Shown here: one piece after another, positions 30,325-56,155 of the stretch | Layout: each line of letters starts with the position of its first letter | Position numbering within the stretch: position 1 is the stretch's first letter | Assembly: GCA_964609675.1 (NCBI GenBank) | Contig: CAZSRX010000008.1 | Coordinates: 28,618-92,617 of the forward strand | Reading direction: 5' to 3' | Length of the DNA: 64,000 nucleotides | Origin: an uncultured Bacteroidota bacterium | GTDB taxonomy: Bacteria > CLD3 > SB21 > JBBIRG01 | The notes under the pieces: model-generated | Database searches by the model: none | The model's input: only the letters and a program-made list of their open reading frames with translations | Told to the model about the DNA's origin: nothing | Made by a program: the position numbers and the translations under genes

Positions 30325-33300
30325 ATGAATCGCACAGGAAAGTCTATGTATCCGACCAAACCAACCGGAATCATCATATTTATCGCATGCGTCATCGGTC
30401 TGACCGGTAACCTCTTAACCGCCCAAAACGGCGAAACGGTAAAATCAAAAAACGATTATATCTCGCTGAAATCTGTAAAACCGGGCGAGTATATTTATGA
30501 ACTGCAATTCCCCGATCCCCAGTTTGAAACGGTGTCGGTAAACGGTAAAACTTTTCATAAAATCAGCGCGCCTTTTTTTGAATCGATCACGCAACCCGGA
30601 GCGCCGGAACTGCCTAAGTTAACGTATTTGCTGGAACTGCCTGAAGGAAACCCTTCCGTATCGGTAATACAAAGCGCATCCAAACGTAGCCGTGTTCATA
30701 CTATCCTCCCGCACAGGGACCACGCCGCGATGGTTGCGCTATCGGAAAGCAGTTTTTCGGACGCTTCGACCACGGACTGGAAGCGGCAAAATGAATGGAT
30801 GCCTGCAAATTCCGTACACCTGCAGTTTCTCGGGCATTTCAGGGAAATTCCAATGTATCGGCTGGATATTTATCCTTACCGTTATCATGCTGTTAAGAAA
30901 GAACTGGAAGCGCTGCGTACGATGAGCATCCGCATTGTCTATCCGTCGAATAAAAAAGTGGCCATCACGGAACCGATTTCGGGTGATCTGCAGGCCCTGC
31001 TGAAAACTCAGATCATTAACTGGGAATCCGCAGGAAAAAACCGTATATGGCAGTCCAAAAAAAACCTGTATAAGGAAAACCTGCAGGCAAATTATCTGGG
31101 CAGCACCTACATCAAAATTACTCTCAATAAAGACGGCCTGTATAAAATTACCTACGATGACTTAAAACGGCTGATGCCTTTCAAATCTATTGATCCACGG
31201 TCTTTCCGTCTTATCTGTCAGGGACGGGAGGTACCGATATATTTCAAAGGCGAAGCCGACGGCGTTTTTTCAAATGGAGACTATTTTGAATTCTTCGGAG
31301 AACAATACCGTTCCAAATTTCATCCGTATTTAAAGGATATTCCATCCTTCAGCGGACATTATTATGATTTGTGGAGCGATGAGAATGTGTATTTCCTAAC
31401 CTGGGATGGACCTCTGGGACAGCGGCTGATAGAGGAGAACGCCGGTCTGCGTCAGGACACCAATCTCCTGCGCCCGCCTTTTTACACCGTCACGAGGCAT
31501 TTCGAGGACGACCGCGTACGGTCGGACCAGCTTAAAAATATTAACCTGATCCAGCCGGCGGTTGTTGAAGACATCTGGACGTTTGATGACGGCGTTTCAT
31601 ACATCGCCGGCGGTTCTAACGCCCAGTCCACGAGGGAGTACAAGTTTAACATCGAAAATCCCGATAATCTTTTTCAGCGCGTGGACACCCTCGTGATCAA
31701 CTTTCAGGGCATCAGTACCGGTTTACATTATATACAGGTATTCGTGAACGATGTGCTGTTGACGCCTACGGCCATGACCTGGTCCGGCGCGAAAAAATTT
31801 CAAGCCGCCTTGCCGGTATTCCCGGGCAGCGGCCGCCTGCGACACGGCGAAAACACGCTGCGCATCTTTACGCCGGCCAACGCGGAACGCAACCTGGACA
31901 TCATCGCCCTGAACTGGTTTGACGTTACCTACAAACGCAAGTACACGGCGTCGGACAGCACGTACATTCTTTTTACAGGCGGCGATACGTATCAATCCGG
32001 TTATGTCCACCAGATTGAAGTCAGCGGCTTCCGAACCCCGGCCATCAGTCTTTATAAAAAAGGCATCAGCAAAATGGTCAGCTGGGACGTTGATTCCAAT
32101 TCATTCGACGGGAGTTATAAAATCACCTTTCAGGACGCCATCTTCTTCCCCGAAACCGAATATATCGCCGTAACGGAAGAAGCCAAAATGAAACCGAAAT
32201 CCCTCACATTGGATACGTTGCGGGATCTCCGTCAGGGCAGTCATAATGCGCGATATCTGATCATTACACCGAAGATTTTCCGGAACAGCATTCAGCGGCT
32301 GGAAAACTATCGCAGAAACAGGGGTTATACGGTTGAAACCGTCCTCGCGGAGGATATTTATGACCAGTTTAATGCCGGCATAAAAAGTCCGTACGCTATT
32401 CGCGATTTTCTGCGTTTCGCGGCTCAATCCCCCGCCTGGCAAGGCACGCAGGGCTCGCCGCTCTATGTGGTTCTGATTGGCGATGCCTCCTATAATTCCA
32501 AGCGCAGTAAAAACGATTTCCTGCCGGTGCAATCCATCCAGACGCTTTCTTACGGCCCTGCTGGAAGCGATCACTGGTACGCGACGCTGGACGACGACAT
32601 CATCGCCGATCTGTTTATCGGTCGGATTTCCGTCACCACGAATACCGAACTGGACAATGTTATAGACAAAATTATCACCTATGAACAATCGGCGTATCCG
32701 GGCGATTGGAAGAACCGCGTCTGTTTTATCGGCGGCCAGCGTGAAACCCGCGGTCAGGGATCCAACAGCGAAATCCCGTATGACGTATTCCGCTATCAGA
32801 GTTCCAGGATTATTAACAATCGTCTGCCGCAGCGATTCTCGGCGGACCGTATCTATGCCTATCCGCTGAACGACCAGTTTTTCGGCGGCGCCAATGCAGT
32901 TATGAATGCGTTTAATACCGGCAAACTGCTTATGGCTTATCTGGGCCATGGGGGCGGCGGTATTTGGGGCGATCTGGACGCGCTCACGGGTAAGCCGCTT
33001 CTCAGCAATGATCAGGCGCTCGCGCTGACACCCACAAACGGTCCGTGGCCATTGGTCCTCAGTATGACCTGTTTTGTGGGCTCCTTCGAAGAAGACAGCC
33101 GCGTGGCCCTCGGCGAACTTCTGGTAAAAACCCCAAACCGCGGCGCCATCGGCGTGTATGCCGCCAGCGGCGTGGGCTGGATTATCGGCGACTACCAGTT
33201 GCTCGACCAAACGATACAGCCCATGCTGGAACAGGCCTCTACGGCCGGCGAAGCGTTGATACTGGGAAAGCTGAATTATATCATCCTGAAGGGCGCGGAC

Positions 33301-35541: not shown

Positions 35542-35544
35542 CGT

Positions 35545-36624
35545 ATGATAACCATCCGACAAATACTTTTCATATCCGTCGTCCTTCCGGCGGTGTTTTT
35601 TTCATCCTTACAGGCCGGCTCGGGCGATCGCTGGTACACTAACGCTTTTCTCGAAATTCCGTTAGGCGCCCGCGCGACAGGCCTTGGCGGCGCTTATGCC
35701 GGTGTGGCTAACGACGGCACCGCCTTCTTCTGGAATCCGGCGGGCATCACGCTCCTGCACAAACGGGAAATCAGTATGATGTATGCCGACCAGTTCGACG
35801 GATTCGGCCAGTATCATTTCATCAATTATTCCCATAAATTGTCGGAAACGTACGGATTCTCGGTCAGTTGGATCCGTTACAGCGTCGGCAGCATCGCGGA
35901 ATATAAGAAACTCGTGGACAATGTTTACGCCCGCAGCCAGCCGGATTACGACTTCAGCCAATACAGTCTCGGCCACTTTGACTACGCCGATAATGCATTT
36001 TTCTTTTCCTTCGCCCGTATGAATAAGTTTTATCTGAACATGGGATGGCTGTACAGCGATTTTCCCGTTCAAATCCCTGTCGGCGTAAATTTTAAAATCC
36101 TCAAGGGCGGAACCAGCGGGATTTCGGGAGAGAATGAAACCGTACTGAGCGACGCGAAAAAATTTGGTATCGGCGTCGATCTCGGCGCTATGCTGATGTT
36201 TGGCGTCAATGATCTGCTCGAAGCCCCGTATCTCGGTGATTTCGCGGCAGGAATCAACCTCCAGGACCTAACCACGACCGGCGTGACCTACAATTCGGCC
36301 TCATCCATCAGCCGTCAGCAACAGGTCAAACCGCGCGATGTAGCTCCGCTGAACGTCAAATTCGGCCTGTCTTATATTCAGCCGATCGATGAACTGGAAA
36401 GCAATGTCCTGATTGCTTACGAGCATAACAACCGCTATGGCGCCACCAGTCACTACGGCCTGGAATATGATTACAAACGGATGATACAGATTCGGCTGGG
36501 ATATAATCATGATAAAATCACTTATGGCGCCGGCCTTTCCGTATGGCAGTTCCAGATCGACTACGCCATTATCAGCCATGACCTGGGCTACACGCACCGT
36601 GTCAGCGCGGCTTATAAATTTTAA
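35545..36624 (+). CDS. PorV/PorQ-family (UPF0164) outer-membrane beta-barrel
   Basis: Signal peptide, FLEIPLGARATGLGGAY..ANDGTAFFWNPAG signature, amphipathic strands, terminal YKF. Confidence 0.85.
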   Translation: MITIRQILFISVVLPAVFFSSLQAGSGDRWYTNAFLEIPLGARATGLGGAYAGVANDGTAFFWNPAGITLLHKREISMMYADQFDGFGQYHFINYSHKLSETYGFSVSWIRYSVGSIAEYKKLVDNVYARSQPDYDFSQYSLGHFDYADNAFFFSFARMNKFYLNMGWLYSDFPVQIPVGVNFKILKGGTSGISGENETVLSDAKKFGIGVDLGAMLMFGVNDLLEAPYLGDFAAGINLQDLTTTGVTYNSASSISRQQQVKPRDVAPLNVKFGLSYIQPIDELESNVLIAYEHNNRYGATSHYGLEYDYKRMIQIRLGYNHDKITYGAGLSVWQFQIDYAIISHDLGYTHRVSAAYKF

Positions 36625-36635
36625 CGGATATTAAA

Positions 36636-37502
36636 ATGAAAAAAAATTATTCCTATCTGTTCTATCTCCTTCTGACTGGATTGGTTACGTTCTTAAACAG
36701 CTGTCCGGAAGAGGTTAATCCCGAATTTGACCCGCCCGGACCGGTTCGTATCCTACCCAATAACGGCGATACAACCATATCCGAATCAGGCCTGCGCACC
36801 ACGCTGGGTTCATCCGGGATTATCGTCGAATGGGAGAAACTGCAGACGACCGACAATGTTATCAAAGAATACCGCATTTTCAGGTCCAAAGGCATCGACA
36901 GCGCTTTTAAACAAATCGGTTCTGTTTTAAGTACTGAGGATCCGGTCTTTCTGGATATGACCGCTTCGAGAGATACTACTTATTATTACTATGTCACAGC
37001 CGTCGATACGCGTAACCGAACCAGTGATACCTCTTTATATTTCAGGCCGGACAGCGTCTCGATTTATATTCGTTTTATAACGCTTGAACAGCCCGCATCC
37101 GGCATACAGCCGCCGTTCTACCCCATGGATACAACCAGTACCAAACCTCTTTTTAAGTGGTGTTACCCCAAATTACCGACCCCTTTCAAATGCGTGTTGC
37201 ATATTGCCAATTCAGGACTTCAGACAATCTGGATCGCTCAAAAACCCGCAGGCGTTTTTGAAACCTGCGGCGAAGGCGCGCCGGTGGAATATATCACGTA
37301 CCACCATCTATCCTATCTGACCAATGACAGCCTGCGTTGTTCCAATCCCGGCGCTGTAGTTGTGAATTACTCCCATCCGATATGGGCGCAAACGTCCCGT
37401 TTGGCAAAAGGCAATTATTACTGGCGGCTGAGCTGTTACTGGCCGGACGGCAACCGTGAATCTCGAACTAATTGGATCGCATTCTCCATCACCAGGGATT
37501 GA
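36636..37502 (+). CDS. Lipoprotein with a fibronectin type III-like domain and a second beta-sandwich
   Basis: Lipobox LNS-C; IIVEW...EYRIFRS...FLD...TTYYYYVTAVD FN3 pattern; GNYYWRL. Confidence 0.75.
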   Translation: MKKNYSYLFYLLLTGLVTFLNSCPEEVNPEFDPPGPVRILPNNGDTTISESGLRTTLGSSGIIVEWEKLQTTDNVIKEYRIFRSKGIDSAFKQIGSVLSTEDPVFLDMTASRDTTYYYYVTAVDTRNRTSDTSLYFRPDSVSIYIRFITLEQPASGIQPPFYPMDTTSTKPLFKWCYPKLPTPFKCVLHIANSGLQTIWIAQKPAGVFETCGEGAPVEYITYHHLSYLTNDSLRCSNPGAVVVNYSHPIWAQTSRLAKGNYYWRLSCYWPDGNRESRTNWIAFSITRD

Positions 37503-37538
37503 ATCCATCATCATTTATCATAAAATCCGGAGTATCTT

Positions 37539-38516: not shown

Positions 38517-38522
38517 AACTAT

Positions 38523-41773: not shown

Positions 41774-41820
41774 AGAGTACCTCCGGTTAGTTATTATATT
41801 ATTTGCTTGTAATATAATAA

Positions 41821-41860
41821 AAACAAAGGGCGGGTGCAAATATTCCCGCCCTTTTTTTTA
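41821..41860 (-). terminator. Terminator downstream of the giant gene
   Basis: AAAGGGCGGG-loop-CCCGCCCTTT (41825-41854) with T/A tracts on both sides. Confidence 0.85.
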
Positions 41861-44800: not shown

Positions 44801-47800
44801 GGCATCATACATAATCAGTGAATCACCGCTGGTAGCGTTTGTTCGGGTAACATTTTTGGATACGCCTCCAGCGTTGGTCGGGAAGGTTACGCCGGTCATC
44901 CAAATATCGCCCGTGGTAAAATTACCGTCCAGTTTTAATAAGGAGCCGTCTGCCTGCCCGTTAGTAAATGTGGTAGAATCGAAATCATACGTAGCGTCAA
45001 TTCCGCTATTCGTGCCGTTTGTTGTAATGGAAACACCATTGGTGTTCATATATTCAAACAGAGCGTGTTTGGCCGCAATAGTACCTCCGGAACTGACAGT
45101 AAAGCCGTAATATGAAGTGCCACCGGTGCGGCGGGTCACCGTAACATTGCTATCCGGTGTCCCTATAATGTTGATCCTGCCACCGGAATTGACGGTCAGG
45201 GCCGTATTACCGGCGGCGGCAGCATACATCCGGAGATTAGAACCTTTATTCAGGTCCAGCGTTCCGGAAACAGTCAAATTATCGGCGCCATCTCCGAATT
45301 CTATTGTCTTTTTGTTTGAATATAAAGTACCGCTGGCAATATTAAGATTACCAACAACTGTAAGATTATCCTGCAGCGTTATAGAACCCGTTGAAGTCTT
45401 ATCAATTCGCAGATTGTTAAACGAGGAGCCGTTAGAGGTAAGGTTTTTGTTGTTATTGCTGGATAACCTGATTTCTCCGGATCCTGCATCGGTAAACGTG
45501 CCAGCATTATAAAATTCACCGTTGATGGTTGTGGTTCGGCCGTTATTATTAAAGGTTCCTTGCAGAATCCGTAAATCGTTGTTCACCTGCAGATCGTTAG
45601 CGCCCATAACAAGGCTGCCGCCGGATTTATTCACAACGATGTTGTAAAATTGCTTACCCGAGCCGGTTCCGCCGGTTACGAAAGTTTGTCCGGAGTTTCC
45701 GTTAAATATTACTACGCCGTTACCGTGGTTGAAATTACTGGAATTCGTCCAGTTACCTCCGACAAAGATTGTATCGGTACTATTCGTTACCGTGATGGTG
45801 CCGGTGCCGTCTATAGTTAGATAATCCGTAACAATTAAATTTCTTCCGTTCAACGTCAGCGTTTTTTGGCTTATCTGAAGCGTTTTAGCCAGCGCCGTAT
45901 CTGCCGTAATCGTCGGCATATTGGAGGAACTGGAATTAATAATCACGTTATTGTCCCTCGTCGGCACTGACTTCGGACTCCAGTTACCCGGATTATGCCA
46001 GTTAGTATTGGTTTTACCGGTCCATTGCCGGGTATTGGTGGTATATACCCAATCTACACGATCACCCGCGTCGAGTTCATAATCGGCACCTTCAAAGGCA
46101 CCCGTAGCATCTTGCATGGTAATGTGGCCGGCCGCTCCTTCTTTGGCGACATTATAGGACTGCCCGGTGGGAACTGTCGGGAAGTTAACATCCCGGATAA
46201 CCAATGTATCGGTGTTATTTTTCAGGTATAGCATTTTACCTTCCGCCATACCGTTGTCAAACGTACAATAGCTGAAATTGTTGCCGGTATCAATCGTCGC
46301 TGAATTGATATAGATACCGTAAGTATTCATATACTCGAACTTAGCATATTTCGCATGAATTTTTGTGCCGTTAGACATGGTAAAGCCGTAATAATTGGCG
46401 GCGTTATTACGGGTCACCGTCGCGACATTACCGCTAACGCCGACGGCCCGGAATACGGCGCCGTTTTGAACCGTAAACGCCGAATTACCGAATATTTTTA
46501 ACTGAGCACCGGCATCTACTTCCAGCGTGGCATTACTGTCAACAACAAAGTAATCGGTTGCGGCATTGCCCAAATTTAATACCTGACCGTTAAGATCCAG
46601 ACTGCCGTATAGGACGGTCATGTTTCCGTTAAAGGTTGCGGCATCGGTTAGCGAATAGGAACCGGTTATGCGGATATTCTCAAAACTCGAGCCGTTCGAT
46701 CGGATAGTTTTTGTTGCCCCGGTAAGAATAACCGTTGAAGTGGAAGGTGTAAATGTGCCGCTGGTCGCGTTCCAGTTTCCTTGTACGGTAATATCGCGCG
46801 TACCGTTGGCGCTGAAGTTTCCTTCATTGATATTCAGGTTATTCCGAATAATTAAATCCGACAAACCCTGCAGATAGACATAATTAGTTGGAGCAGTGCC
46901 GGTATTGCTGATGATGATATTAAAGTACCGTTTGCCTTTCCCTGTACCCTCCGGATAGAAGTTTTGATTTGCCGATCCGTTAAATGTCAGGGTGTTATTG
47001 ACCTCATTGGTATCTGACAGCAACAAACCGTAATTTAAAAAATTACCACCACACGTTATATTATGATTTTCCGTGCTGACATCCAGAATAACTTCTCCTG
47101 CCATGGCAGCCGTTGATATCTGTATATATCCCCGTGCTTGCAAATCGCCGTTAATGCGTTTCCAGTAAACCGGGCCGCTGGATTGTTTGCTGATCAGTAG
47201 ATTGCCGTAATAGAAATGGGAACCGTCAGACAATTTGGTCTCAATAAGCTGGACCGAATCCCGTATATATTGAGTAACGGAAGTGGGATTCATGTTAATA
47301 TATTCGAAATTCTTAGGAAAATTGTCATAGCCGCGCAAATAGATATTCATACCCGCGTCGAGTTGGAAACTGTCGGCTTCGGATAGACTGTTGACCGTAT
47401 AAACATTCAAATCAAAATTGCGTTTGACGTCAAATAATCCGCTGTCAATATTAATATTGGTGAAGAGTGTTTTAGTCCCGGTTCCTTCAAACCGCAGACC
47501 GCTGAATGTAGTAGGATTATTTCCGCCGGTACCCCCGCCATATATATTTTGTCCGGCTCCGTTGAATATAACGGTGCTCAGATTAGGCGTAAAAGTAGCG
47601 TAATTGTCCCAGTTGCCACTTAATTGAATGGTCTTGCCGTTGCCGTCTACGACGCCCGAAGATAACTGAATGGTAATTCCTCCGCGGATATCGACATTCG
47701 TCATGAAGGTCTTGGCACCGCTATTTTCAAAGACAACGTTATAAAAATCGCTCGAGTCGCGACCATAAATGAAAGCGGCAGCGGTACCGTTAAAATAGGT

Positions 47801-50800
47801 TGTACTGGTGCCGTGCTTATAATAACCGCCGTTGTCATTATCCCATTTCTTTCCGACATATAAAGCTACGTTGGATACGTTATCCAGCGTGCCGAACGAG
47901 TCAATAAACAACGTATCATTGATCTGAACCGCATTGGTAGTTATAGCAAGAATGGAATTGCGGCCGACTTCGAGCGTACTGAAACGCTTGTTGGTCGCAG
48001 TACCGCCACTGACCAGCGTCTGGATGCCGGTACTGTCAAACCGCACGCGTCCGCCGCCGGGATTGAAAGTCCCGGGATTTGACCAGTTACCTTTGACCTG
48101 GATAAGGGACTGGCCGCTCATAACGGTCAATGTACCATTAATGGTAATGTCGCCGTGAACCACTAATGTATCGTCCATTATCATCAGCTGGCGCGTACCG
48201 GCTTCGATGGTCAGGTCTTTGCAGTAAGCTACGCCGGGGGTGTTGTTGGTGTCCGTATAGCAATGGTTAACGGCGGAAGCAGCAATCACCACGCGTCGGT
48301 TTCCGTCGGGTACGCCGGCCGGCGTCCAGTTGTAGGGATTAAACCAATTGGTGCTGTAGGTACCGTTCCAGGTCGATATGGAATCGGAGAAAATCCATTC
48401 AATAATGCCCGTGCTCGTGGGATTATCGTATGTGTCGCCGGAAAATACGCCGGTGGCGTCCACAAACTGCAGGGTATCGGTGGCATCCCCGAAGGTTACG
48501 TTGTTGGCGCCGCCACCAGGATTGACTGAGAAATTGGCGTTCCAGATCGCGTTGTTATTAGCGCGGGTCATACTGGTTGTTAAACTGTCTATACGTAAAG
48601 CCGTCGCGCCGGCTACGCCCATTGGATAAGCAAAGTTACCGTCGCTGAAATTATACGGGTAAGTCTGGATGGTTCCTCCGGCCTGGACCCACACGCCGTT
48701 GGCGTTGGTGCGTTCAATCTTATAATAACGGGCTCCGATAGTTCCATTAGGCCCTATCGTAAGCGCATAGGTGCCGGCCCCTGTGCGCCGTGTGATAATG
48801 GCCGGATTAGCGCTGTCGCCAATAACCGTAAGCGTCCCGGCGGTACCGTACAGACCGACGTTTACGCGGGAATTCTGGTAAACATAGAAGGTACTGCCGG
48901 TTTCAATGGCCAATACGCCTCCTTCGGCTATATTTACCGAATCGGTTCCGGTCGTGCTGTAATAAATGTCGTAACCATTGGACCGGATAGTACCGCGGTT
49001 GATATTAAACACCCCGCGAACATCCATCTGGTAGCCGGTAAGCGTGTATGTGCCTGCGCTGTCAATTTGTAAATGGTTAAAAATATAATTGCCGCCAATG
49101 CCGGTATAACCCGTTCGAAGCGTGCGACTGCCCTTGCCGCGCAGATAAACCGTGTCGCCGCGGGCTATAAAAGTACCGCCCCGGTTATCCCAATCCCCGT
49201 AGCAATAAACAGTGTTAAACCCAAGCGTATTCACATCGAGCGAACCGGCAATTATAATTAAATTCCCGCCGACATATAAATCACTGTTTGTTTGTCCCAA
49301 TAATACATCATTCTGGTTGGGTTTGTTCAGAACAAAGTTATAAAAACCGTTCGTTAAAGCCTGGTTAATGGAATTCATGTTTGTGGTAAACGTGGCGTTG
49401 ACAGTTCCATCGGCGATAACCGTATTATTGTTATGTATAAAAACGCCGTTGTTGGTCCAGTTGCCGCCGACAAACAGGGAATCGCCGCTGTTGACAATCA
49501 GGGAATCGCCGGCATTGATGGTCAGGTGGCGGTTGACGTCAATTTTGGTCATAAAATATTTTGCGCCGGACCCGGACAGCACGAGATCATAAAAGTCATC
49601 GCGTCCGGTGGCCGAAATGTATTGCGGCCCGTTTCGATTAAAAGTAACGCTGCCGGTACCGGTCGTAACCGTTGTGGAAGGCGCCTGATACCAATTACCG
49701 CCCACGTAAACGGCCTGCCCGCCAAGACTGAAATTCCCGGATTCTATAGCCAAACTGTCATTCACATCCAGACGTTGCGTAATACGGACGTCGTTACCGC
49801 GGAGATACAGCTTATTAAAGGCCTTACCATTACTCAGATTACCGCTGTACAAATACTGTATGCCGCTTCCGTCTATAATCACCCGGCCGGATCGCGGCTG
49901 AAACACCCCGGAGGCGGTGGTATTATACCAGTATCCGCCGCAATTGATTGTGTAATTATTCGTCGAAACATCAAGAGTCGTATTGGCCTCTATGGTAAGA
50001 TTACCGCGGCAATTTAAATCGCCATCTAAGGTTTTTGTAACGACGGCGCCGTTACCATAGAAGTAAATATTACCGTACTGGATCTTAGAGCCGCTTGCGG
50101 TTACGGCGGGTATGACCTGGTTGCCGCGGTCAAAATACACGGTGCTGGAGGCGGCCAGCGTGATGGTCTCAAAACCAGCAGGGAACGAGTTGCTGTCGGA
50201 ACCGGTAGTGTTTCGAATATACAATCCGCAATTGGCGCCCAGGTCTAATGTGTTACTGCCGCCCAAACCGTTGATGCGGAAATTCTGCAGGTTTAGGTAC
50301 GCCACACCAGCGTTCACGGTTATATTGCCGCGCACATCGAAACTGTCATAATAAACCGTACGGGCGCCGGAACCTGTAAAATTCAGATTCCAGAAGGTCT
50401 GCTTCGGCGCTCCCGCATACAAATATATACCGGTGCCGGTACCGTCGTTGCGGTCTAGCGTGATGGTCGAGGGTTGCGAACCCACGTCAATGCGGGCGTT
50501 GGCGCCGTCATTGAACTGTAAATTGTTCCCGACATTAATGTTAAAATACCGGTTGCTCGGGTTATACATTCGCAGTGTCGTATTATTATAAACATAAAGC
50601 GTACCGGTTACTTTCAGATTACTATCCAGTGTTTTATACCCGTAACGCAGATACAGGTTCGAATAATTAATCTGGTTTCCGTTAGGAAGATACGTTTTGA
50701 CGGTTTGTATCGAGTCGCCAACCGCTGGCCGATCATAAATCACAATACTTCCGGAGCTGAAATTGGCGTTTTCCACGCTGTCCGGGAAGCTATTGGTGCC

Positions 50801-53800
50801 GCGCAGATACAGATAATTGTAATCGGTGCCTCCGCTTAATGTAAACGTGTTATTAGCGCCGCGCATGACCAACGAACTGTCGATTGTCAGACCGCGCGCG
50901 GCCTGGCTGAGAGCGACCGTAATGTTGCCGGTTACGACGGTATGGGTCTCGATAAACTTATTACTGACGCCGGCAAATTCCAGATTGTGGAACACGGTAC
51001 CATTGGGATACATGTATTGATTACCGTTCGAACCGTTCAGCAGGACAGTGCCTTCACGCGCCACAAACGTGCCGCCATTACTGAACCAGACACTATTACC
51101 GGTTGTGGGGGTCCCGCCGTAACCGCTTAGTGTAATGCCCAGGTTTTCCGGACCCACATCCAGATAGCCGCCGACATTAAGTTGTAAAGTGTGCGTAACA
51201 TTGATGCTTGATTTCAGCGTATCACTGCCGTTGATGACCAGATTGTAAAAATCCGTTTCTCCGGTGCCGCGGATGGTTTTTCCGGTACCATTGCGGTAAA
51301 CGGAACGCGTACGCGGTATAAAAGTGGCCACCGAATCGCCGCCTTCATCCCATTTTTCCCAATTTCCGTAGCTATAAATATCGTAACTGCTAACGTCAAA
51401 CGAGCCGTTAATCAGTTTGACATCCCCCCGGACATCGATATCGCCGCCCAGCGTGGCCGTTCCGGTCTTCTGAATGACTAAATTATAAAAACGTCGGCTG
51501 GCATTGGTATTGGTGTTAATATTCTGACTGGATTGGCCGTTAAAGTTTACAGTCAATTTATTATTATGGGATACAATCCCAATGGTATTGGCATAATTGC
51601 CCTGTATATATAATGTATCATTGCCGGCAGTGCTGTTGGCGACTAGATTGCCGGCGGCAGAATCCACATTAAAATCAGTCAATACGCGTAAAACGCCTCT
51701 GTTTGCGCCGGATCCAAGCACTAATGAATCTTTAAGGCTTATATTATACGCAATAGCCGTGGGAACATCAATAATCGGCGCGCGGTTACCGCCCGGAATG
51801 ACGACCCGGCGTGTGGCGTCCGGAACACCGTTGCTCCAGTTGAGCGCGTTCGTCCATAACTGATCGCTGCCGGCTCCCGTATTATGCAGCCAGCGCGTAA
51901 GAATCGTAGTATAGTACCAGTTTATCCGGTTAAACGGATCCCCTTCATATGCGGAATCCGCAAAAATACCCAACGGATCGGTAAGGATAATCGTACCCTG
52001 ATCTTGGGACTTCCTTATGTTTAAAGTTCCCGTTCCTGAATTTTTCGGGAAGTTAACGCCTTTGATATCATAGATGCCCGTCAGAGACTGGTTGTTATCG
52101 ATCCGCAGCAGACAGGAACCCGCCGTAGCCGATCCGTTTGTAAACGTACAATAGCTGAAGTTGTTGAGTGTGTCAATTTCAGCGCCGTTCTGCACCCAGA
52201 CGCCGTCGGTGTCCATATACTCAAACTGCGCGTATTTGGCGGCAATCTTGGCGCCATTTTCAATATTAAACTTATATGAAGGAGTGCCGGTCGTGCTTTG
52301 ACGGGTAATCACCGCCTCGGAACCGGGCCTACCGACCACTTTCAATTGACCGCCGGTCAGTCGTAACGCTGAGTTGTTATTCGCATCCGCATAAAGCTGG
52401 ATTGAAGAATTGTCTCCAACATCCAGTAAACCGCCGGAAATAAGTAAAGTATCCTGAGTCCCGGTACCGCCGTCATTACCGACTTTCAGATCATGCCCGG
52501 TAGCCGCGGCACTGTCGTAAACTTTTACAGTTCCGTCATATAACCGGAAATTATTTGCAACGGTAAGATCGGTTTTTAAAGTATAATAGGATCCGGGAGC
52601 GTTAACGATCAGTGAGTTAAACAAATTATAGGTGCCGTCGATTGGCGTCATCTGGATGGTACGGTCGGTTAAGCCGGAGCCATTGATGGTCACCGTCCTA
52701 TTACGGGGCAGGAATTGGCCGTCATCTTTTACGATAAAAGAGCCTCCGACGACTAAATCATAGGAATTAATATCGAACGTTCCGCTGTCTCTGTAAACAT
52801 CGAAATAGCCTTTTTCTATAGTAATATTATTTGCAACCCTCAGATTACCAAAAGAAGGATTATAGCTAATAGCCGGCGGAGTATAGACGCGCACCCAGCC
52901 ATTGGGGTTGGATATTTTATTTATCTTTAAATTATAAAAATAATTGCTGATGCCGCCGTTGAAGATATACTGCATCCAGCGGGTACCGGTCAGTTCAACC
53001 GTACTTCCGGAACTGGCCTGGAAAGCGCCGTAATTCAGCCAGTGCCCGCCTACGTAAATCGTGGTGTTCGTAGGCAGATTAAGCGTTACGCCCGATTCGA
53101 TAAGCACATCATAGTTAACATCCATATTGGCGGTCAGATTTTTTGTTCCGGACCCGGCAAAGCGGACCACATAAAAATCATTCGCGCCTGCGCCGCTTAT
53201 GGTCTGGCCGGCGCCTATAAAATGGATTGTATCGGCGTTCGGCGTGAACGTGGCATTGTTAATCCAGTCACCTACAAGGAAAACATCCCGATACTGGTTA
53301 ACCGCATAATTCGCCTGGACGATGCCGCTTATAATATTAAAGTTACCACTGATGTATAAATCGTATTGATTGATGGTCGACAGTTTCTGGTCCGCTTTAC
53401 GGACGATTAAGTTATTAAATTGGAGACCAGGTTGGGTAGCGCCTTGTCCGGTATATCCGCTGTAAATGGCCTGGGTCGCGCTTCCGACAAGGACAACGGC
53501 GCCTGTACCTGCAGTAAAACGCCCGGTGCCAAGCCGGTTATCAAAATTACCCCCAACTTTGAGATAGTCGTTACTGATGTCCAGGGTAACACTATCTTGA
53601 AATACCAGGTTGCCGGCCACATGAAGCGAATCGGAATTGGTATTGTCAACCGTAATAGTCCGGGGAGTTGTATATAATAAAGTGAGATTGTAAAAGTCAT
53701 TATCCCCGGTACCTATAATCGTTTGATTACCGTTTTCGCCAAGAGTAACCGTCGAATTATTAAAATCGAAAGTCGTACCCGCGTCTCTTCGCCAGGTTCC

Positions 53801-55795
53801 GTTTACACGCATTGCATAATTATTATTAGAGGTGCTGAAGGTACCGGCCTGATGATAAAAATTGCTGTCGATATAGATGGCGCCATATAATTGGGCGACG
53901 CCGCCGGTTTTATTAACTGTAACATTGTAAAACTGCTTACCGGCTCCTTGTCCGCCGGTACGTATCTGCTGATCCTGGTCGCCGGCAAAAATCACCGTAT
54001 TGTTCCCGTGCTCAAAAATACCGGTGCTCCAGTTGGTCCAGTATCCCTGTATGGTGAGATTATATCCCTGGGTTCTCAGCGTAACGCCGGCGTTGATTTG
54101 AAAATCGCCATAGATACCCGGAATAGAAGACCCGATGGTTTTAAAGGTACCGTTGCCGCCGGTGATCAGATTGCCGTAGTTAATACTTCCCTTGATGGTT
54201 TGATCAAGGGTGCCGTCATATTGAACGGTGCTGTTTGTACCCAGGGTAATATTAGCTACAGGAAAATCAGGGAAGTTATTGGCGCCGCGGACATACAGGA
54301 TAACTCCGTCGTTAATTTCTAGCATGCGGGTCCCGCTGCCGACCGCTTCAACCTGATTCGTCCTGAGGTTAACATAGGTTACGCCCGAGAAAGCTCTGAA
54401 GGTGCCCAGAACTTTCATGGATACACCATAAGTGTTAACCAGGTCTTTACCCTGGGTACCATCGAAGAACACGTCGTTAAACTGGGACTGGGCTGTGCTT
54501 CCCGGGTTAATAGTATCTAAACCGGTAATGTAGATCGTCTGATAGGCAGGCGCTACAAAGTGAATGGGATTGCTAAATTGTGAGAATCGGATGGCGCCGC
54601 CTACGGTGCCGTTATCCTGAACGTTAAGGGCGGTGTGTCCGGTGGTTTGATTCTGCCCGATATACAGTTCGCAGGCCGCGCCTTCAAGGTCAAAGATGGT
54701 CTCCGGGCCTACGGTTACGGTAAACTGTGTATTGATAATTTCACCGTCTAGCACATACTTATGATACCGTTGTCCGGCCGTTTGCCGGCCTAAATATAAT
54801 CCGTAGTAGTAGATGGGGTCCCCATCGGCATCCATAGAACGCACAATCTGGTGAGAATTAGCGTCATAATACGTATACCCGTTTTCAAAGCGGATGCGTT
54901 CGAACCCGTCCGGAAACATGTCCTGCGTGGCGTTACCGTTGCCATTGACGCGCCGTATCACCAGGCCGCCGTAACAGGTAAGCGCGTTATCGGCTCCGTC
55001 GCCGCGGATCTTGCCGCCGCGCCCGTTAAAGACCGCAAAGCGGTCGAGCAGATAGAAAGTGTTGCCGCTTTGTATCACCATGGAATCAGCCACCGAGATC
55101 GAATCATGCAAATATTTTACGTTTCCGGTGGCGACCAGCGTACCGAATCGGAAGACGCCCGACGGGCTTACGCCGGCCCCGCGGCTGTCATATATTGTCT
55201 GAGCGCCGGAGCCGTTAAGCGTAAATACTGAGTTAAGGCCGGAGAAGATGCCCTGATTATCCCAGACTCCCCCGCCAAAAAAGATATTACTGCCATTTGC
55301 GGCGAAAGTCACGTTGGTATTAATTGTCAGGTTGCCTTCAATGGTGATGGCTGTATCGAGCGACTTGGTAGTGCCTCCGCCAGTCATGGTTACATTATAT
55401 AACGTTCCGGTGCCTTTTAAGCCGATGGCCTGGTTGCCACTCCCGTTAAAATTGACTGTGCTGCCCGAATAGGAATTAATAACCCCAAGGCCTGTTATAT
55501 CGGCGGCGATTAAGAAATTACCGGCAACATTGAGAGTGCCGTAAAGGTTGAGCGTGCCGGCAACCCGGACATTCCCAGAACCGCCGCCGGATTGGGAAAC
55601 CGTCAGGGTTCCGGTGCTGATATTCAGCGTGTTACCCACGGCAACGGTCACCGCTCCGCAGGAATCCGTAGATGAGGTAATGTTTACGGTTGCATTATTA
55701 TCAATAACGACACTGTCCCACGGGGTCGGTACGCCGGCTGGGCTCCAGTTAGCCGCAGTAGACCACAAAGAACCGCTACCGCCGACCCAGGTTTT
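41876..55795 (-). repeat. Five protein-level super-repeats inside the giant gene, starting near aa 123, 1422, 2596, 3378 and 3811
   Basis: N-cap W/F codons at nt ~55789, 51892, 48370, 46024, 44725; each unit ends in a TR...A(K/R)(Y/H)..FEYM...FP...DA.G.F.G...W.(Y/F) module. Repeats are diverged at the DNA level. Confidence 0.8.
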
Positions 55796-56155
55796 TAGCG
55801 TAAGCGCCTCTGTAAATCCGCCGCCCTTGCCGTTTCGGACATCGGTTTTTACCGGCCGGAATTTATAATCCGGATGAACTTCCTCGGGTAATGGATTGCC
55901 GGTGACATATCCCTTTAACCGGCGTGATTCACTTACTTGAATCAGTTCATCGGTCTTCAGCCTATCGTCTTTAGTAAGGTCGACGGGAATGCCGGGGCCT
56001 GTAGCGTCTTTCCCGGACGGTACGTTTTTAATTGTATCCGAATACAAGATTTCCCGGGGGTTTTCCTCCGCAAATGCTTTTCTCGCTTTGGTCTGGGTAT
56101 AGCCGGTTGCAGCCAGTACAGACACCATTACCACGGTAACAAGTAAGCGTTTCAT
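41876..56155 (-). CDS. Giant (4759 aa) secreted beta-helical repeat protein with an LPVEL-type Ig domain and C-terminal T9SS-type sorting domain; probable adhesin or surface filament
   Basis: Uninterrupted 14.3 kb ORF; signal peptide; G/N/T-rich V.GNW.N.G.F...V.F.G..Q.I...FYN repeats; five W.G...W...NW...G(V/L)P caps; LPVELAYF; SQNYPNPFNPNT...GVYIYRI...KMMVIK; GGAG RBS. Confidence 0.88.
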   Translation of the reverse strand: MKRLLVTVVMVSVLAATGYTQTKARKAFAEENPREILYSDTIKNVPSGKDATGPGIPVDLTKDDRLKTDELIQVSESRRLKGYVTGNPLPEEVHPDYKFRPVKTDVRNGKGGGFTEALTLKTWVGGSGSLWSTAANWSPAGVPTPWDSVVIDNNATVNITSSTDSCGAVTVAVGNTLNISTGTLTVSQSGGGSGNVRVAGTLNLYGTLNVAGNFLIAADITGLGVINSYSGSTVNFNGSGNQAIGLKGTGTLYNVTMTGGGTTKSLDTAITIEGNLTINTNVTFAANGSNIFFGGGVWDNQGIFSGLNSVFTLNGSGAQTIYDSRGAGVSPSGVFRFGTLVATGNVKYLHDSISVADSMVIQSGNTFYLLDRFAVFNGRGGKIRGDGADNALTCYGGLVIRRVNGNGNATQDMFPDGFERIRFENGYTYYDANSHQIVRSMDADGDPIYYYGLYLGRQTAGQRYHKYVLDGEIINTQFTVTVGPETIFDLEGAACELYIGQNQTTGHTALNVQDNGTVGGAIRFSQFSNPIHFVAPAYQTIYITGLDTINPGSTAQSQFNDVFFDGTQGKDLVNTYGVSMKVLGTFRAFSGVTYVNLRTNQVEAVGSGTRMLEINDGVILYVRGANNFPDFPVANITLGTNSTVQYDGTLDQTIKGSINYGNLITGGNGTFKTIGSSIPGIYGDFQINAGVTLRTQGYNLTIQGYWTNWSTGIFEHGNNTVIFAGDQDQQIRTGGQGAGKQFYNVTVNKTGGVAQLYGAIYIDSNFYHQAGTFSTSNNNYAMRVNGTWRRDAGTTFDFNNSTVTLGENGNQTIIGTGDNDFYNLTLLYTTPRTITVDNTNSDSLHVAGNLVFQDSVTLDISNDYLKVGGNFDNRLGTGRFTAGTGAVVLVGSATQAIYSGYTGQGATQPGLQFNNLIVRKADQKLSTINQYDLYISGNFNIISGIVQANYAVNQYRDVFLVGDWINNATFTPNADTIHFIGAGQTISGAGANDFYVVRFAGSGTKNLTANMDVNYDVLIESGVTLNLPTNTTIYVGGHWLNYGAFQASSGSTVELTGTRWMQYIFNGGISNYFYNLKINKISNPNGWVRVYTPPAISYNPSFGNLRVANNITIEKGYFDVYRDSGTFDINSYDLVVGGSFIVKDDGQFLPRNRTVTINGSGLTDRTIQMTPIDGTYNLFNSLIVNAPGSYYTLKTDLTVANNFRLYDGTVKVYDSAAATGHDLKVGNDGGTGTQDTLLISGGLLDVGDNSSIQLYADANNNSALRLTGGQLKVVGRPGSEAVITRQSTTGTPSYKFNIENGAKIAAKYAQFEYMDTDGVWVQNGAEIDTLNNFSYCTFTNGSATAGSCLLRIDNNQSLTGIYDIKGVNFPKNSGTGTLNIRKSQDQGTIILTDPLGIFADSAYEGDPFNRINWYYTTILTRWLHNTGAGSDQLWTNALNWSNGVPDATRRVVIPGGNRAPIIDVPTAIAYNISLKDSLVLGSGANRGVLRVLTDFNVDSAAGNLVANSTAGNDTLYIQGNYANTIGIVSHNNKLTVNFNGQSSQNINTNTNASRRFYNLVIQKTGTATLGGDIDVRGDVKLINGSFDVSSYDIYSYGNWEKWDEGGDSVATFIPRTRSVYRNGTGKTIRGTGETDFYNLVINGSDTLKSSINVTHTLQLNVGGYLDVGPENLGITLSGYGGTPTTGNSVWFSNGGTFVAREGTVLLNGSNGNQYMYPNGTVFHNLEFAGVSNKFIETHTVVTGNITVALSQAARGLTIDSSLVMRGANNTFTLSGGTDYNYLYLRGTNSFPDSVENANFSSGSIVIYDRPAVGDSIQTVKTYLPNGNQINYSNLYLRYGYKTLDSNLKVTGTLYVYNNTTLRMYNPSNRYFNINVGNNLQFNDGANARIDVGSQPSTITLDRNDGTGTGIYLYAGAPKQTFWNLNFTGSGARTVYYDSFDVRGNITVNAGVAYLNLQNFRINGLGGSNTLDLGANCGLYIRNTTGSDSNSFPAGFETITLAASSTVYFDRGNQVIPAVTASGSKIQYGNIYFYGNGAVVTKTLDGDLNCRGNLTIEANTTLDVSTNNYTINCGGYWYNTTASGVFQPRSGRVIIDGSGIQYLYSGNLSNGKAFNKLYLRGNDVRITQRLDVNDSLAIESGNFSLGGQAVYVGGNWYQAPSTTVTTGTGSVTFNRNGPQYISATGRDDFYDLVLSGSGAKYFMTKIDVNRHLTINAGDSLIVNSGDSLFVGGNWTNNGVFIHNNNTVIADGTVNATFTTNMNSINQALTNGFYNFVLNKPNQNDVLLGQTNSDLYVGGNLIIIAGSLDVNTLGFNTVYCYGDWDNRGGTFIARGDTVYLRGKGSRTLRTGYTGIGGNYIFNHLQIDSAGTYTLTGYQMDVRGVFNINRGTIRSNGYDIYYSTTGTDSVNIAEGGVLAIETGSTFYVYQNSRVNVGLYGTAGTLTVIGDSANPAIITRRTGAGTYALTIGPNGTIGARYYKIERTNANGVWVQAGGTIQTYPYNFSDGNFAYPMGVAGATALRIDSLTTSMTRANNNAIWNANFSVNPGGGANNVTFGDATDTLQFVDATGVFSGDTYDNPTSTGIIEWIFSDSISTWNGTYSTNWFNPYNWTPAGVPDGNRRVVIAASAVNHCYTDTNNTPGVAYCKDLTIEAGTRQLMIMDDTLVVHGDITINGTLTVMSGQSLIQVKGNWSNPGTFNPGGGRVRFDSTGIQTLVSGGTATNKRFSTLEVGRNSILAITTNAVQINDTLFIDSFGTLDNVSNVALYVGKKWDNDNGGYYKHGTSTTYFNGTAAAFIYGRDSSDFYNVVFENSGAKTFMTNVDIRGGITIQLSSGVVDGNGKTIQLSGNWDNYATFTPNLSTVIFNGAGQNIYGGGTGGNNPTTFSGLRFEGTGTKTLFTNINIDSGLFDVKRNFDLNVYTVNSLSEADSFQLDAGMNIYLRGYDNFPKNFEYINMNPTSVTQYIRDSVQLIETKLSDGSHFYYGNLLISKQSSGPVYWKRINGDLQARGYIQISTAAMAGEVILDVSTENHNITCGGNFLNYGLLLSDTNEVNNTLTFNGSANQNFYPEGTGKGKRYFNIIISNTGTAPTNYVYLQGLSDLIIRNNLNINEGNFSANGTRDITVQGNWNATSGTFTPSTSTVILTGATKTIRSNGSSFENIRITGSYSLTDAATFNGNMTVLYGSLDLNGQVLNLGNAATDYFVVDSNATLEVDAGAQLKIFGNSAFTVQNGAVFRAVGVSGNVATVTRNNAANYYGFTMSNGTKIHAKYAKFEYMNTYGIYINSATIDTGNNFSYCTFDNGMAEGKMLYLKNNTDTLVIRDVNFPTVPTGQSYNVAKEGAAGHITMQDATGAFEGADYELDAGDRVDWVYTTNTRQWTGKTNTNWHNPGNWSPKSVPTRDNNVIINSSSSNMPTITADTALAKTLQISQKTLTLNGRNLIVTDYLTIDGTGTITVTNSTDTIFVGGNWTNSSNFNHGNGVVIFNGNSGQTFVTGGTGSGKQFYNIVVNKSGGSLVMGANDLQVNNDLRILQGTFNNNGRTTTINGEFYNAGTFTDAGSGEIRLSSNNNKNLTSNGSSFNNLRIDKTSTGSITLQDNLTVVGNLNIASGTLYSNKKTIEFGDGADNLTVSGTLDLNKGSNLRMYAAAAGNTALTVNSGGRINIIGTPDSNVTVTRRTGGTSYYGFTVSSGGTIAAKHALFEYMNTNGVSITTNGTNSGIDATYDFDSTTFTNGQADGSLLKLDGNFTTGDIWMTGVTFPTNAGGVSKNVTRTNATSGDSLIMYDASGAFEGEAYSSGAYLDWRYSTTTYTFDGGPSGTGRSWKVAENWNPNGLPDDATKNALIPSGFTNVQYDTNLTCNNITIRDGATVNVNATKRMRLVGSLLITGTSSSLTLTTGTDTMFVAKSITIGAGATLTANNNKIVCGENWTTTGTFNYGTGNIIFNGTGLQTINTGGTSKPFYNVRIDKPSGTIRLASSLQLRGLLNIVNGIFDLSSSDIEVYGSWYNNGGTFIPNGRTVSFVGNINSSIETNGTTYYRLVVNKNSGNYLQLNSNNNIVTNEFTVSSGGFRTNNRHLTIGGNVTLTASVTMQAGDSLILNGSTASNYDDGNNSIANLVINKTGATVTSTGDSKVINHFIVRDGTFDLSGRNFDYGDAATDSIRVYSGDLLVSGGGNLKMTNGTKVNIYGGSLSILGTSDAIRARLTRLISGNYSINVYDNGTLVMGYGTIEDCNNFNVSGLLQAQAAKVSRFGDGTVININNNGIFRAIGTDTTYANRANIGSVSGNYRMVVASGGTLDVKNAGFFNLGGSGQYGITLQSGALIESTQKMDNTFFLSGTGNAYISMASDQFVSPSGVRFDSAATNRMLYNVSNTSGNGRISFVNYKGTMSGVRYEQDNGDPSYGRVRWSFNETQNVGTSANVIFGNDFRIKTLGNALGSTTVRLISDTLNVAVAAVMRYYTVQSANTVSNDTIRLYYGRDELNNNNKNQLHIWRRSAGVWAMIDTMPGVTMLRDTTELWVQAANYPFRAGILDTLVICDAVNDASLPVELAYFRARSENGKVTLEWRTESELNNAYWLVFKKEISEEEYDKLNKGLITIEQLYSTFASAGQLKGAGTKPSATDYIFEDTEVKSGARYAYRIADVSYDGKINVHDAEYVLVDLPKSFRLSQNYPNPFNPNTTIEYDLPVAAQVTIKIYNILGQEVQTLVNKKMEPGFHKVRWNGLSNRNTAVASGVYIYRITAKALEGKQRFTKTHKMMVIK

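Follow-up and report, generated by a model that had tools for sequence, protein, structure and literature searches.

The exported proteins of this uncultured bacterium are enriched in the tripeptide D-[ST]-[AILVMT] (abbreviated D[ST]h below). The enrichment is genuine, specific and genome-wide; it is restricted to exported proteins, the sites are conserved between exported orthologues, and it follows a phylogenetic pattern across related lineages. Judged from sequence, D-(S/T)-(L/V/A/M/T/I) would act as a sequon recognized in the periplasm, and a Bacteroidota-type general O-glycosylation system is the most likely to recognize it; we put the probability of this explanation at about three in four.

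Sequon enrichment by protein class

Sequons were counted against an expectation from each protein's own composition in 2631 gene calls on the whole genome, the gene, signal-peptide and topology calls all being heuristic. The exported class (741 proteins with a signal peptide) held 1552 sequons against 907 expected (1.71-fold, z = 21), versus 1.05-fold for cytoplasmic proteins below 1000 aa. The difference between exported and cytoplasmic proteins that a sequence-only reading had claimed for the window (the whole 64,000-nucleotide stretch analyzed here) is therefore borne out across the genome after composition correction. Lipoproteins had the highest class ratio (2.62), and T9SS cargo, for which the genome encodes about 60 to 73 proteins with a sorting domain, reached 2.1 to 2.5 (625 sequons in 63 kaa at 2.5). 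Among single-pass membrane proteins, the part predicted to lie outside was at 1.90 versus 0.75 for the inside part. Multi-pass membrane proteins stood at 1.03, and their inside and outside loops were alike (1.07 versus 1.06). One 4239-aa repeat protein, which lies outside the exported class, contains 137 sequons by itself. The ratio for the exported class was 1.65 to 1.83 across all length classes and 1.66 without its 30 longest proteins; the enrichment goes beyond composition, protein size, a few giants or a repeated domain motif.

Sequons in the proteins of the window

Four exported proteins of the window have C-terminal PF18962/FlgD_ig matches and are thus T9SS cargo. The giant among them (4759 aa; 41876..56155, minus strand), beta-rich and ending in a Por_Secre_tail domain (Pfam), carries 49 sequons versus 18.9 +/- 4.0 in composition-preserving shuffles (z = 7.5), spread evenly at 3 to 7 per 500 aa; the expectation of about 15 offered by the sequence-only reading was somewhat low, and the enrichment holds. 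Its T9SS sorting domain (C-terminal; 41876..42133, minus strand) has no sequon. A PorU-like Peptidase_C25/Propeptide_C25 protein with a C-terminal sorting domain (1738 aa; 30325..35541, plus strand) has 16 versus 6.0 expected (P = 0.0003, shuffles), and a 397-aa cargo protein (2408..3601, plus strand) has 4 versus 1.1 expected (P = 0.017, shuffles). The fourth, an exported M14 carboxypeptidase that is not PheT (797-810 aa; 10..2403, plus strand), has 4 versus 2.5 expected, which was not significant in shuffles. An exported DUF6588 protein (390 aa; 40667..41839, minus strand) has 2 against 0.8 expected. Enrichment among the exported proteins of the window is not universal: the M14 cargo and the DUF6588 protein are exceptions, and an exported PorV/FadL-like outer-membrane barrel (359 aa; 35545..36624, plus strand; 0.8 expected) and a 323-aa propeller lipoprotein have no sequon at all.

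An FN3-like lipoprotein of two beta-sandwich domains (288 aa; 36636..37502, plus strand) has 6 sequons, at residues 45, 88, 113, 139, 165 and 231, against 0.9 expected, a count reached by no shuffle. In an AF2 model (pLDDT 79.6) all six fall at loop positions, with the Ser/Thr in non-regular segments and two of the six sites directly before strands. In a 17-genome alignment, the sequon D231-S-L (37326..37334, plus strand) is the best-conserved single sequon of the window, D-S/T-L/I being present in 17/17 genomes of the order at an overall identity of 33-46%. For D165-T-T (37128..37136, plus strand), a sequon stands in that column or one residue off in 16 of the 17.

A regular-expression search returned exactly the hand counts of the sequence-only reading for the giant, C25, FN3-like and 397-aa proteins (49, 16, 6 and 4). 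Its cytoplasmic counts also agreed (Dxs 0; KorA, GlnA and a ClpX-like AAA protein 1 each; PheT and Ffh 2 each; TypA 4), except that RNase Y has 1 sequon and not 0, and the protein identities it named match Pfam. It had gone on to propose a glycan stripe along a beta-helix, from strings recurring at equivalent rungs of the giant protein. The strings themselves (NDTLYIQG, GDSLFVGG, TDTIFVGG, TDTMFVAK and SDSLHVAG) are all there, and 33 of the 49 sequons sit at strand starts, followed by an alternating hydrophobic pattern. The stripe is nevertheless overstated: D-[ST] occurs at just 11 of 159 comparable strand starts, and the sequons are irregularly spaced. A single-sequence AlphaFold model of residues 2100-2800 (701 residues) had a pLDDT of 45 and is unusable for stripe geometry.

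Specificity of the motif

Each position of the motif is discriminated. At position -1, D outranks the other 19 residues; at position 0, S comes first and T second. An observed/expected ratio above 1.2 at position +1 is confined to L, V, A, M, T and I, matching the published set, and this position shows a deficit of F, Y, W, G, P and charged residues. Of all 8000 tripeptides, DSL is the most over-represented (z = 16.4). Control motifs in exported proteins gave 1.08 for E[ST]h, 0.87 for N[ST]h, 1.21 for the reversed motif and 0.72 for D[ST] followed by another residue, so that the E-[ST] and D-[ST]-polar controls proposed in the sequence-only reading show no comparable excess. S is modestly favored over T at position 0 (1.85 versus 1.57), and glycoproteomes likewise favor S slightly (PMC12871550). 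The flanks hold at most 0.07 bit of information per position, that is, no extended context. Pro at -2 is an extra preference, P-D-S/T-h being 3.0-fold here, 4.4-fold in genome G006 and 1.3-fold in Parabacteroides distasonis; we found no report of such a preference for Bacteroidota in the literature.

Two other readings of the sequence pattern were discarded. N-glycosylation sequons, frequent-looking in one giant protein, are unenriched (N-x-S/T, 1.01; D/E-x-N-x-S/T, 0.94), and a lipoprotein-export signal does not fit sequons that are evenly distributed along lipoproteins.

Conservation and avoidance of sorting domains

Orthologues were compared between the genome and three other genomes of its order. 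In 91 exported pairs (51% identity), 97 of 154 sequons (63%) were conserved versus 280 of 929 sites (30%) of eight control tripeptide classes (Fisher p = 1.4e-14); E[ST]h was conserved at 20% of its sites in exported orthologues, as opposed to 63% for D[ST]h. In 153 cytoplasmic pairs, sequons and controls did not differ significantly (36% versus 42% conserved). On these alignments, purifying selection on the sequons is demonstrable, and in exported orthologues only.

The sorting domains of T9SS cargo avoid the motif. The C-terminal 85 residues of 73 cargo proteins contain no sequon against 10.0 expected (P = 5e-5), whereas control motifs in the same domains are near expectation (37 versus 31.9). 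Across the lineages compared, 0/141 sorting domains have a sequon, with 18 expected. A tentative reading of this absence is that glycosylation would precede T9SS export and would clash with recognition of the sorting domain.

Distribution across related lineages

The host phylum comprises 20 species in one class and lies outside GTDB Bacteroidota, so the host is not a member of Bacteroidota in that taxonomy. The window's lineage is FCB-related and has T9SS in common with the FCB group; the best named matches of its TypA (at most 63% identity) are from Ignavibacteriales, which GTDB places within Bacteroidota. None of the Ignavibacteriales and Bacteroidota MAGs used here (G021-G023) is among the 20 species listed for the phylum. 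For all genomes but the bacterium's own, samples of 60-450 kb were run through the same pipeline.

All four genomes examined from the order were enriched in their exported proteins (1.6-2.1), as were two Ignavibacteriales MAGs (1.58 and 1.92). Exported proteins of Escherichia coli (1.02) and of an acidobacterium (0.86) were not. Since two Bacteroidales, P. distasonis (1.09) and Prevotella oral taxon 299 (0.92), also lacked overall enrichment, the ratio is no calibrated proxy for the system. Divided by size, which stands in roughly for a periplasmic or surface location, exported proteins of Prevotella oral taxon 299 were at 1.38 below 450 aa and at 0.60 above, a split not seen in P. distasonis. 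A MAG labeled "Prevotella sp." (G025), intended as a positive control, lacks T9SS sorting domains and has class-mates with genomes of 1.2-3.9 Mb; it is probably mislabeled and was counted as an unenriched genome. In a sister order of the same phylum, with 91-142 T9SS cargo genes per genome, an initial reading of no signal was overturned once cargo was split from other exported proteins: in its genome G019, cargo was at 0.76 and the 8 best-scoring cargo proteins at 0.32, while small exported proteins were at 1.77.

A proposed periplasmic sequon and its alternatives

In the general O-glycosylation system of Bacteroidota, whose oligosaccharides share a hexose-deoxyhexose-hexuronic acid core, the glycan is assembled in the cytoplasm with undecaprenyl phosphate as its carrier and then flipped over the inner membrane, after which a transferase links it to the sequon Ser/Thr of proteins already past that membrane. 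For this system, glycosylation of one species' proteins by another is established. By the same steps, a lipid-linked glycan would here be built in the cytoplasm, flipped across the inner membrane, and placed by a transferase on the sequon Ser/Thr of proteins past that membrane. Within the order, the sequon would have been positively selected and maintained on lipoproteins and other exported proteins, especially T9SS cargo, with the giant protein, the PorU-like C25 protein and the FN3-like lipoprotein among them. The outcome would be a dense O-glycan coat, like that of Tannerella forsythia, on the cell surface and on long secreted filaments; sorting domains would remain free of sequons, presumably since a glycan would hinder their recognition or cleavage. 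We infer that O-glycosylation is the selected function, and likewise in what order the steps run and what the coat does; the first of these is jointly supported by the exported-only excess, the choice of D over E, the slight preference for S over T, the exact +1 set, purifying selection and clean controls. The earlier claim that a Bacteroidota-type system probably operates in the lineage thus gains strong statistical support, its glycan stripe aside, and the system is here predicted from sequence.

A structural cause would be a turn-to-strand junction favored in beta-rich secreted proteins (beta-helices, Ig/FN3 domains, autotransporter-like proteins) and unrelated to any modification. The strand-start pattern at 33 of 49 sites of the giant protein, and the two lipoprotein sites modeled immediately before strands, are what such a junction would produce. 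Yet composition and shuffles per protein are already in the expectation; lipoproteins, which are no beta-helices, have the top ratio; F, Y and W are depleted at +1 though suited to strands; the controls with E for D and with the motif reversed stay flat; and D-[ST] occupies few of the equivalent strand starts of the giant protein itself. Nor is the excess general to secreted proteins, as the values for E. coli, the acidobacterium, the large exported proteins of Prevotella and the cargo-rich sister order make plain; neither E. coli nor sister-order cargo shows the beta-turn or beta-helix preference that the sequence-only reading had itself raised against its claim. These controls largely refute a structural cause, which we regard as very improbable. 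Still less credible is an artefact of heuristic gene calling and localization classes, or inflation of the counts by a small number of paralogous repeats. The gene finder and signal-peptide calls are indeed untrained, and one repeat protein accounts for 137 sequons; but that protein is outside the exported class, the ratio holds in every length class and without the longest proteins, and the identical pipeline gives about 1 in the control genomes, E. coli included. Misclassification could merely dilute the difference between classes, and the orthologue test is independent of the expected-count model.

A periplasmic reader other than a Bacteroidota-type O-glycosyltransferase is unlikely, though less so: candidates are a phospho- or acyl-type modification, single-sugar O-mannosylation by a PMT-like GT-C protein, or a group-specific chaperone or protease site. 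The evidence is at the level of sequence and establishes a selected motif in exported proteins; two GT-C proteins of the PMT_2 family are encoded in the genome, and the Pro preference at -2 is specific to the lineage. Set against these are the residue-for-residue match to the known O-glycosylation sequon, with E excluded at -1 and T included at +1 (PMC12871550), a lineage related to the FCB group and sharing its T9SS, and a like signal in Ignavibacteriales, inside GTDB Bacteroidota. Together these favor Bacteroidota-type O-glycosylation. To our knowledge, D-(S/T)-(A/I/L/V/M/T) is the sole known bacterial O-glycosylation sequon, and we know of no other system that reads D-S/T-h.

Candidate glycosylation genes

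Up to 2025, the literature had identified no dedicated oligosaccharyltransferase (PMC12871550; PMC12632263), and the core-glycan genes of the system are likewise unidentified, even in Bacteroidota (PMC12871550). The LFG-type locus (metG, a wzx flippase and glycosyltransferases) is not conserved across Bacteroidota (PMC8698959, PMC12871550), and its known genes are of generic GT2/Wzx types (PMC8698959). A simple motif search of the heuristic gene calls gave no usable match to metG, a gene of that locus. Its predicted fucosyltransferase was set aside as a query, the GT2 family being too generic. PMT_2 (PF13231) was rejected as a transferase marker: it occurs whether or not a genome is enriched, E. 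coli has it too, and a Bacteroides thetaiotaomicron control lacks it.

Evolutionary reading and significance

An identical sequon in a separate, uncultured, FCB-related phylum suggests that the system likely originated earlier than Bacteroidota. Compared with the model Bacteroidales tested, enrichment here is stronger and cleaner, and its sites are under demonstrable purifying selection. We tentatively propose, at somewhat less than even odds, that sequon density is a selectable dial for the O-glycan load of each envelope-protein class across the FCB group, with both settings present in this one phylum: the window's order may load cargo and lipoproteins with sequons (2.5-fold), like Ignavibacteriales and T. 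forsythia, and the sister order, like Porphyromonas gingivalis, may strip them from cargo (0.3- to 0.8-fold) and keep them on small, probably periplasmic, proteins (1.8-fold). Work on species whose glycosylation is proven shows that evolution can change the sequon load of surface proteins, and in P. gingivalis, which glycosylates, their sequon content is under selection (PMC8729774). If such a dial exists and glycosylation precedes export, the system would be older than Bacteroidota, and sequon statistics would be a computable phenotype for phylogenetic profiling toward the missing oligosaccharyltransferase. A read-out from sequence (enrichment, conservation and sorting-domain avoidance) could more generally be correlated with gene content to reach the missing enzymes of a system that is essential in Bacteroides. 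For genome annotation, the giant filament, the PorU-like protein and most lipoproteins would be predicted glycoproteins.

Comparison with known systems

Campylobacter PglB N-glycosylation and Neisseria/Acinetobacter PglL O-glycosylation are periplasmic, act en bloc from a lipid-linked donor and have many exported targets. The system proposed here would be alike in being periplasmic, en bloc, lipid linked and active on numerous exported proteins; however, the PglB sequon D/E-X-N-X-S/T is unenriched here (0.94), and PglL-type systems have no sequon. The closer likeness is to Bacteroidota general O-glycosylation (Coyne et al. 2013; PMC12871550). Shared are the three-residue sequon, with D and not E at -1 and S slightly over T (PMC12871550), and the restriction to proteins that leave the cytoplasm, with lipoproteins, periplasmic proteins and T9SS cargo as targets. 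It differs in that the host here belongs to a separate GTDB phylum of 20 species, composition-corrected enrichment is much above that of the two Bacteroidales tested, Pro is additionally preferred at -2, and the system is here predicted from sequons. In a phylum-wide survey, the sequon was enriched in Bacteroidota and Fibrobacterota (PMC12871550, Fig. 2A). Fibrobacterota, like the present lineage, are a non-Bacteroidota FCB lineage with the motif enriched in non-cytoplasmic proteins, which was read as a pre-Bacteroidota origin (PMC12871550); they are, however, another phylum, and the survey corrected only for species-level amino-acid frequencies, without tests of conservation or control motifs.

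Among individual species, P. gingivalis glycosylates periplasmic and inner-membrane proteins, while its gingipains and abundant cargo are without the motif (PMC8729774). In this it resembles the sister-order genome G019 (0.76 in cargo, 1.77 in small exported proteins) and Prevotella oral taxon 299 (1.38 versus 0.60), and its direction of selection is the reverse of the one in the window's order, whose most enriched class is cargo. In T. forsythia, the two S-layer proteins have 19 and 11 sites, and 16 cargo proteins have a further 90 (PMC8550257; PMC8729774). Its sites are proven by mass spectrometry, whereas those here are predicted; as in the window's order, where cargo is enriched 2.5-fold, sites are dense in its T9SS cargo, very large surface proteins included.

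Sequon counts in the window

The Bacteroidota O-glycosylation sequon, D-[ST]-[AILVMT], was counted by regular expression in the translated ORFs of the window, in which protein identities were confirmed by Pfam. The counts that a sequence-only reading had given for exported proteins were reproduced: 49 in the giant T9SS cargo protein (4759 aa; 41876-56155, - strand), 16 in the PorU-like C25 protein (1738 aa; 30325-35541, +), 6 in the FN3-like lipoprotein (288 aa; 36636-37502, +), and 4 in a smaller T9SS cargo protein (397 aa; 2408-3601, +). Composition-preserving shuffles gave expectations of 18.9 +/- 4.0 (z = 7.5), 6.0 (P = 0.0003), 0.9 (6 being attained in no shuffle), and 1.1 (P = 0.017), respectively. 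By the same regular-expression count, zero sequons occurred in two further exported window proteins, a PorV-like barrel and a 323-aa propeller lipoprotein. Of the earlier cytoplasmic counts, only that of RNase Y needed correction, from 0 to 1; those that stood were 0 in Dxs, one sequon each in KorA, GlnA, and the AAA/ClpX-like protein, two each in PheT (61510-63921, -) and Ffh, and 4 in TypA. Pfam showed the product of the window's first ORF (10-2403, +) to be exported cargo: a zinc carboxypeptidase of the M14 family carrying MAM-like and T9SS sorting domains.

Genome-wide enrichment and residue specificity

The excess proposed from the window held across the host proteome. Our dicodon-based caller yielded 2631 genes (90% coding); signal peptides, lipoboxes, and transmembrane segments were assigned by self-written classifiers, so that gene calls and topology alike are heuristic, and expected counts were derived per protein from its own composition. 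The 741 signal-peptide proteins contained 1552 sequons versus 907 expected (observed/expected [O/E] 1.71, z = 21), with O/E of 1.65 to 1.83 in every length class and 1.66 after the 30 longest proteins were dropped. Lipoproteins reached 2.62, multi-pass membrane proteins 1.03, and cytoplasmic proteins 1.17, the last because of a single misclassified T9SS-type protein of 4239 aa with 137 sequons; without proteins of >1000 aa, the cytoplasmic value was 1.05. Single-pass membrane proteins had an O/E of 1.90 in the part predicted to lie outside versus 0.75 inside; in multi-pass membrane proteins, outside and inside loops were alike under the heuristic topology. Control motifs in exported proteins were flat: E[ST]h, where h is [AILVMT], 1.08; N[ST]h, 0.87; the reversed motif, 1.21; D[ST] followed by any other residue, 0.72; and N-x-S/T, 1.01.

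The misclassified protein is the second of two adjacent, slightly overlapping ORFs outside the window (C7:49259-65402) that form the sequon density peak of the genome, at ~1 per 31 residues, with DTL, DSV, DTV, DSL, and other variants all represented. The first ORF (1156 aa, with a signal peptide) has 32 sequons versus 6.8 expected; the second, with a T9SS-like C-terminus, has its 137 versus 24.8 expected. The pair may be a single gene broken by a frameshift or assembly error.

When motif positions were changed singly in exported proteins, D ranked highest of the 20 residues at position -1, and S (1.85) and T (1.57) ranked first and second at position 0. The six highest values at position +1 (L 2.3, V 2.1, A 1.6, M 1.4, T 1.4, and I 1.3) belonged to precisely those residues that the published sequon allows; S and C stood at 1.0 and all remaining residues below 1, F, Y, W, G, and P among them. 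Each of three further genomes of the order independently gave the ranking L > V > M, A > T, I. No other of the 8000 tripeptides was as overrepresented in exported proteins as DSL (265 observed versus 100 expected, z = 16.4), whose O/E in cytoplasmic proteins was 1.06. Residues flanking the sequon carried at most 0.07 bit of information; the sequon is therefore not part of a repeated domain motif. The sole extra context was Pro at -2: in exported proteins, P-D-[ST]-h occurred at 3.0 times expectation in the host and 4.4 times in G006, of the same order, versus 1.3 times in Parabacteroides distasonis and 0.6 times in Escherichia coli, and may be an extension of the sequon particular to this lineage.

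Conservation of sequon sites

Best-hit orthologues aligned between the host and sampled genomes from three relatives within the order gave 91 exported pairs (mean identity, 51%) and 153 cytoplasmic pairs (60%). Among exported orthologues, the sequon recurred in the partner at 97 of 154 sites (63%), compared with 280 of 929 (30%) for eight control tripeptide classes (Fisher p = 1.4e-14); in the cytoplasmic pairs, 36% of sequons versus 42% of controls were kept, a nonsignificant difference. In the FN3-like lipoprotein, the DSL at residue 231 was kept in 17/17 genomes at 33 to 46% overall identity, and the residue-165 site in 16/17. An AF2 model built from this 17-genome alignment (pLDDT 79.6) placed the Ser/Thr of all six sequons in loops, two of them immediately N-terminal to strands. 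The protein was found in 18/18 species of the order and in 0/2 genomes of the sister order. Its gene lies downstream of the PorU/PorV-like pair, and it and its orthologues share a conserved C-P-[DE]-E-V-[DN]-P-P at the N-terminus, directly after the lipobox Cys.

T9SS cargo, sorting domains, and the giant protein

The host encodes about 60 to 73 T9SS cargo genes along with the PorU/PorV-like pair, and 73 cargo proteins held 625 sequons, 2.5 times expectation. The last 85 residues of these 73 proteins contained 0 sequons versus 10.0 expected (P = 5e-5), with E/N control motifs there at expectation (37 versus 31.9). Sequon-free sorting domains in the window lie at 41876-42133 (-), 35284-35541 (+), and 3344-3601 (+). 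A further 68 sorting domains sampled from other FCB genomes had 0 versus about 8 expected, or 0 versus ~18 with the host included, a pattern which suggests that a glycan would not be tolerated on the T9SS sorting domain.

Structural preference for the motif in beta-turns or beta-helices could also generate such an excess. Of the 49 sequons in the giant protein, 33 precede an alternating hydrophobic pattern (h-x-h) that marks a strand start, and in 18 of these position +5 is also occupied by Asn or a small residue, in agreement with the rung examples of the sequence-only reading; D-[ST] occupies just 11 of 159 comparable strand starts. The sister order encodes 91 to 142 T9SS cargo genes per genome, yet its sampled cargo has an O/E of only 0.76. 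T9SS cargo architecture alone is therefore not the source of the motif, and this explanation is thereby largely disposed of. The arrangement of sequons in the giant protein was more modest than the glycan stripe along the beta-helix that had been envisaged: spacing was irregular, with an even spread along the length, and a single-sequence AF2 model of residues 2100 to 2800 (pLDDT 45) was too poor for stripe geometry. The data support scattered surface sites; the continuous stripe was an overstatement.

Comparison with other lineages and known systems

Comparator genomes were run through the same pipeline as partial samples of 60 to 450 kb each. Exported and cytoplasmic O/E, respectively, were 1.61 and 0.83 in G002 (same family), 1.80 and 0.99 in G003 (same order), 2.07 and 0.83 in G006, 1.58 and 1.03 in an Ignavibacteriales MAG, and 1.92 and 0.91 in an Ignavibacteriaceae MAG. 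Values were 1.02 and 1.06 in E. coli K-12, 0.86 and 0.73 in a Pyrinomonadaceae acidobacterium, 1.22 and 1.27 in an unclassified Bacteroidota MAG, and 1.18 and 1.19 in G019 of the sister order. Overall exported enrichment was absent from the partial samples of two true Bacteroidales, P. distasonis (1.09 and 1.14) and Prevotella oral taxon 299 (0.92 and 0.95). Although filed as plasmids, the PLSDB records for these two, NZ_OY725768.1 (388 kb) and NC_022111.1 (1.77 Mb), resemble chromosomal fragments or a second chromosome and carry ParA/ParB of the housekeeping type, GH92, and further core genes. In another bin filed as "Prevotella sp." (CAVEKJ010000007.1), T9SS sorting-domain proteins were absent, and that label is probably wrong.

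Porphyromonas gingivalis is reported to glycosylate periplasmic and inner-membrane proteins but to have purged the motif from its abundant cargo, its surface lipoproteins, and its barrels, in contrast to the heavily glycosylated cargo of Tannerella forsythia (PMC8729774). Because of this purging, exported sets were split by sorting domain and by size, with a 450-aa length cutoff standing in, crudely, for the divide between periplasmic proteins and those of the surface or outer membrane. Below and above this length, O/E was 1.38 and 0.60 in Prevotella oral taxon 299, 1.77 and 1.15 in G019, 1.03 and 1.01 in E. coli, and, a slight difference, 1.17 and 1.07 in P. distasonis. The eight best-scoring cargo proteins of G019 had 11 sequons versus 34.7 expected (0.32). 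The sister order thus resembles P. gingivalis, with depleted cargo and enriched small exported proteins, whereas the window's order shows the opposite.

The host is outside GTDB Bacteroidota, in a phylum of only 20 species and one class (18 species in the window's order, 2 in the sister order), and looks FCB-related; the closest named sequences to its TypA are from Ignavibacteriales (63% identity). A selected periplasmic sequon matching that of Bacteroidota is strongly supported by sequence statistics, and from it we infer the glycan itself; we put the probability that sequon sites in the host's exported proteins are O-glycosylated at about 0.75. In Bacteroidota, the sequon, its limitation to noncytoplasmic proteins, and a lipid-linked periplasmic pathway are established, with transferase and core-glycan genes still unidentified in the literature (PMC12871550, PMC12632263). 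Motif enrichment has been reported mainly from Bacteroidota, with similar enrichment in Fibrobacterota, proposed as a place to seek the system's origin (PMC12871550), and T9SS was previously known from several FCB phyla (PMC11285876). The O-glycosylation predicted here is a well-supported case of this known mechanism rather than a new one.
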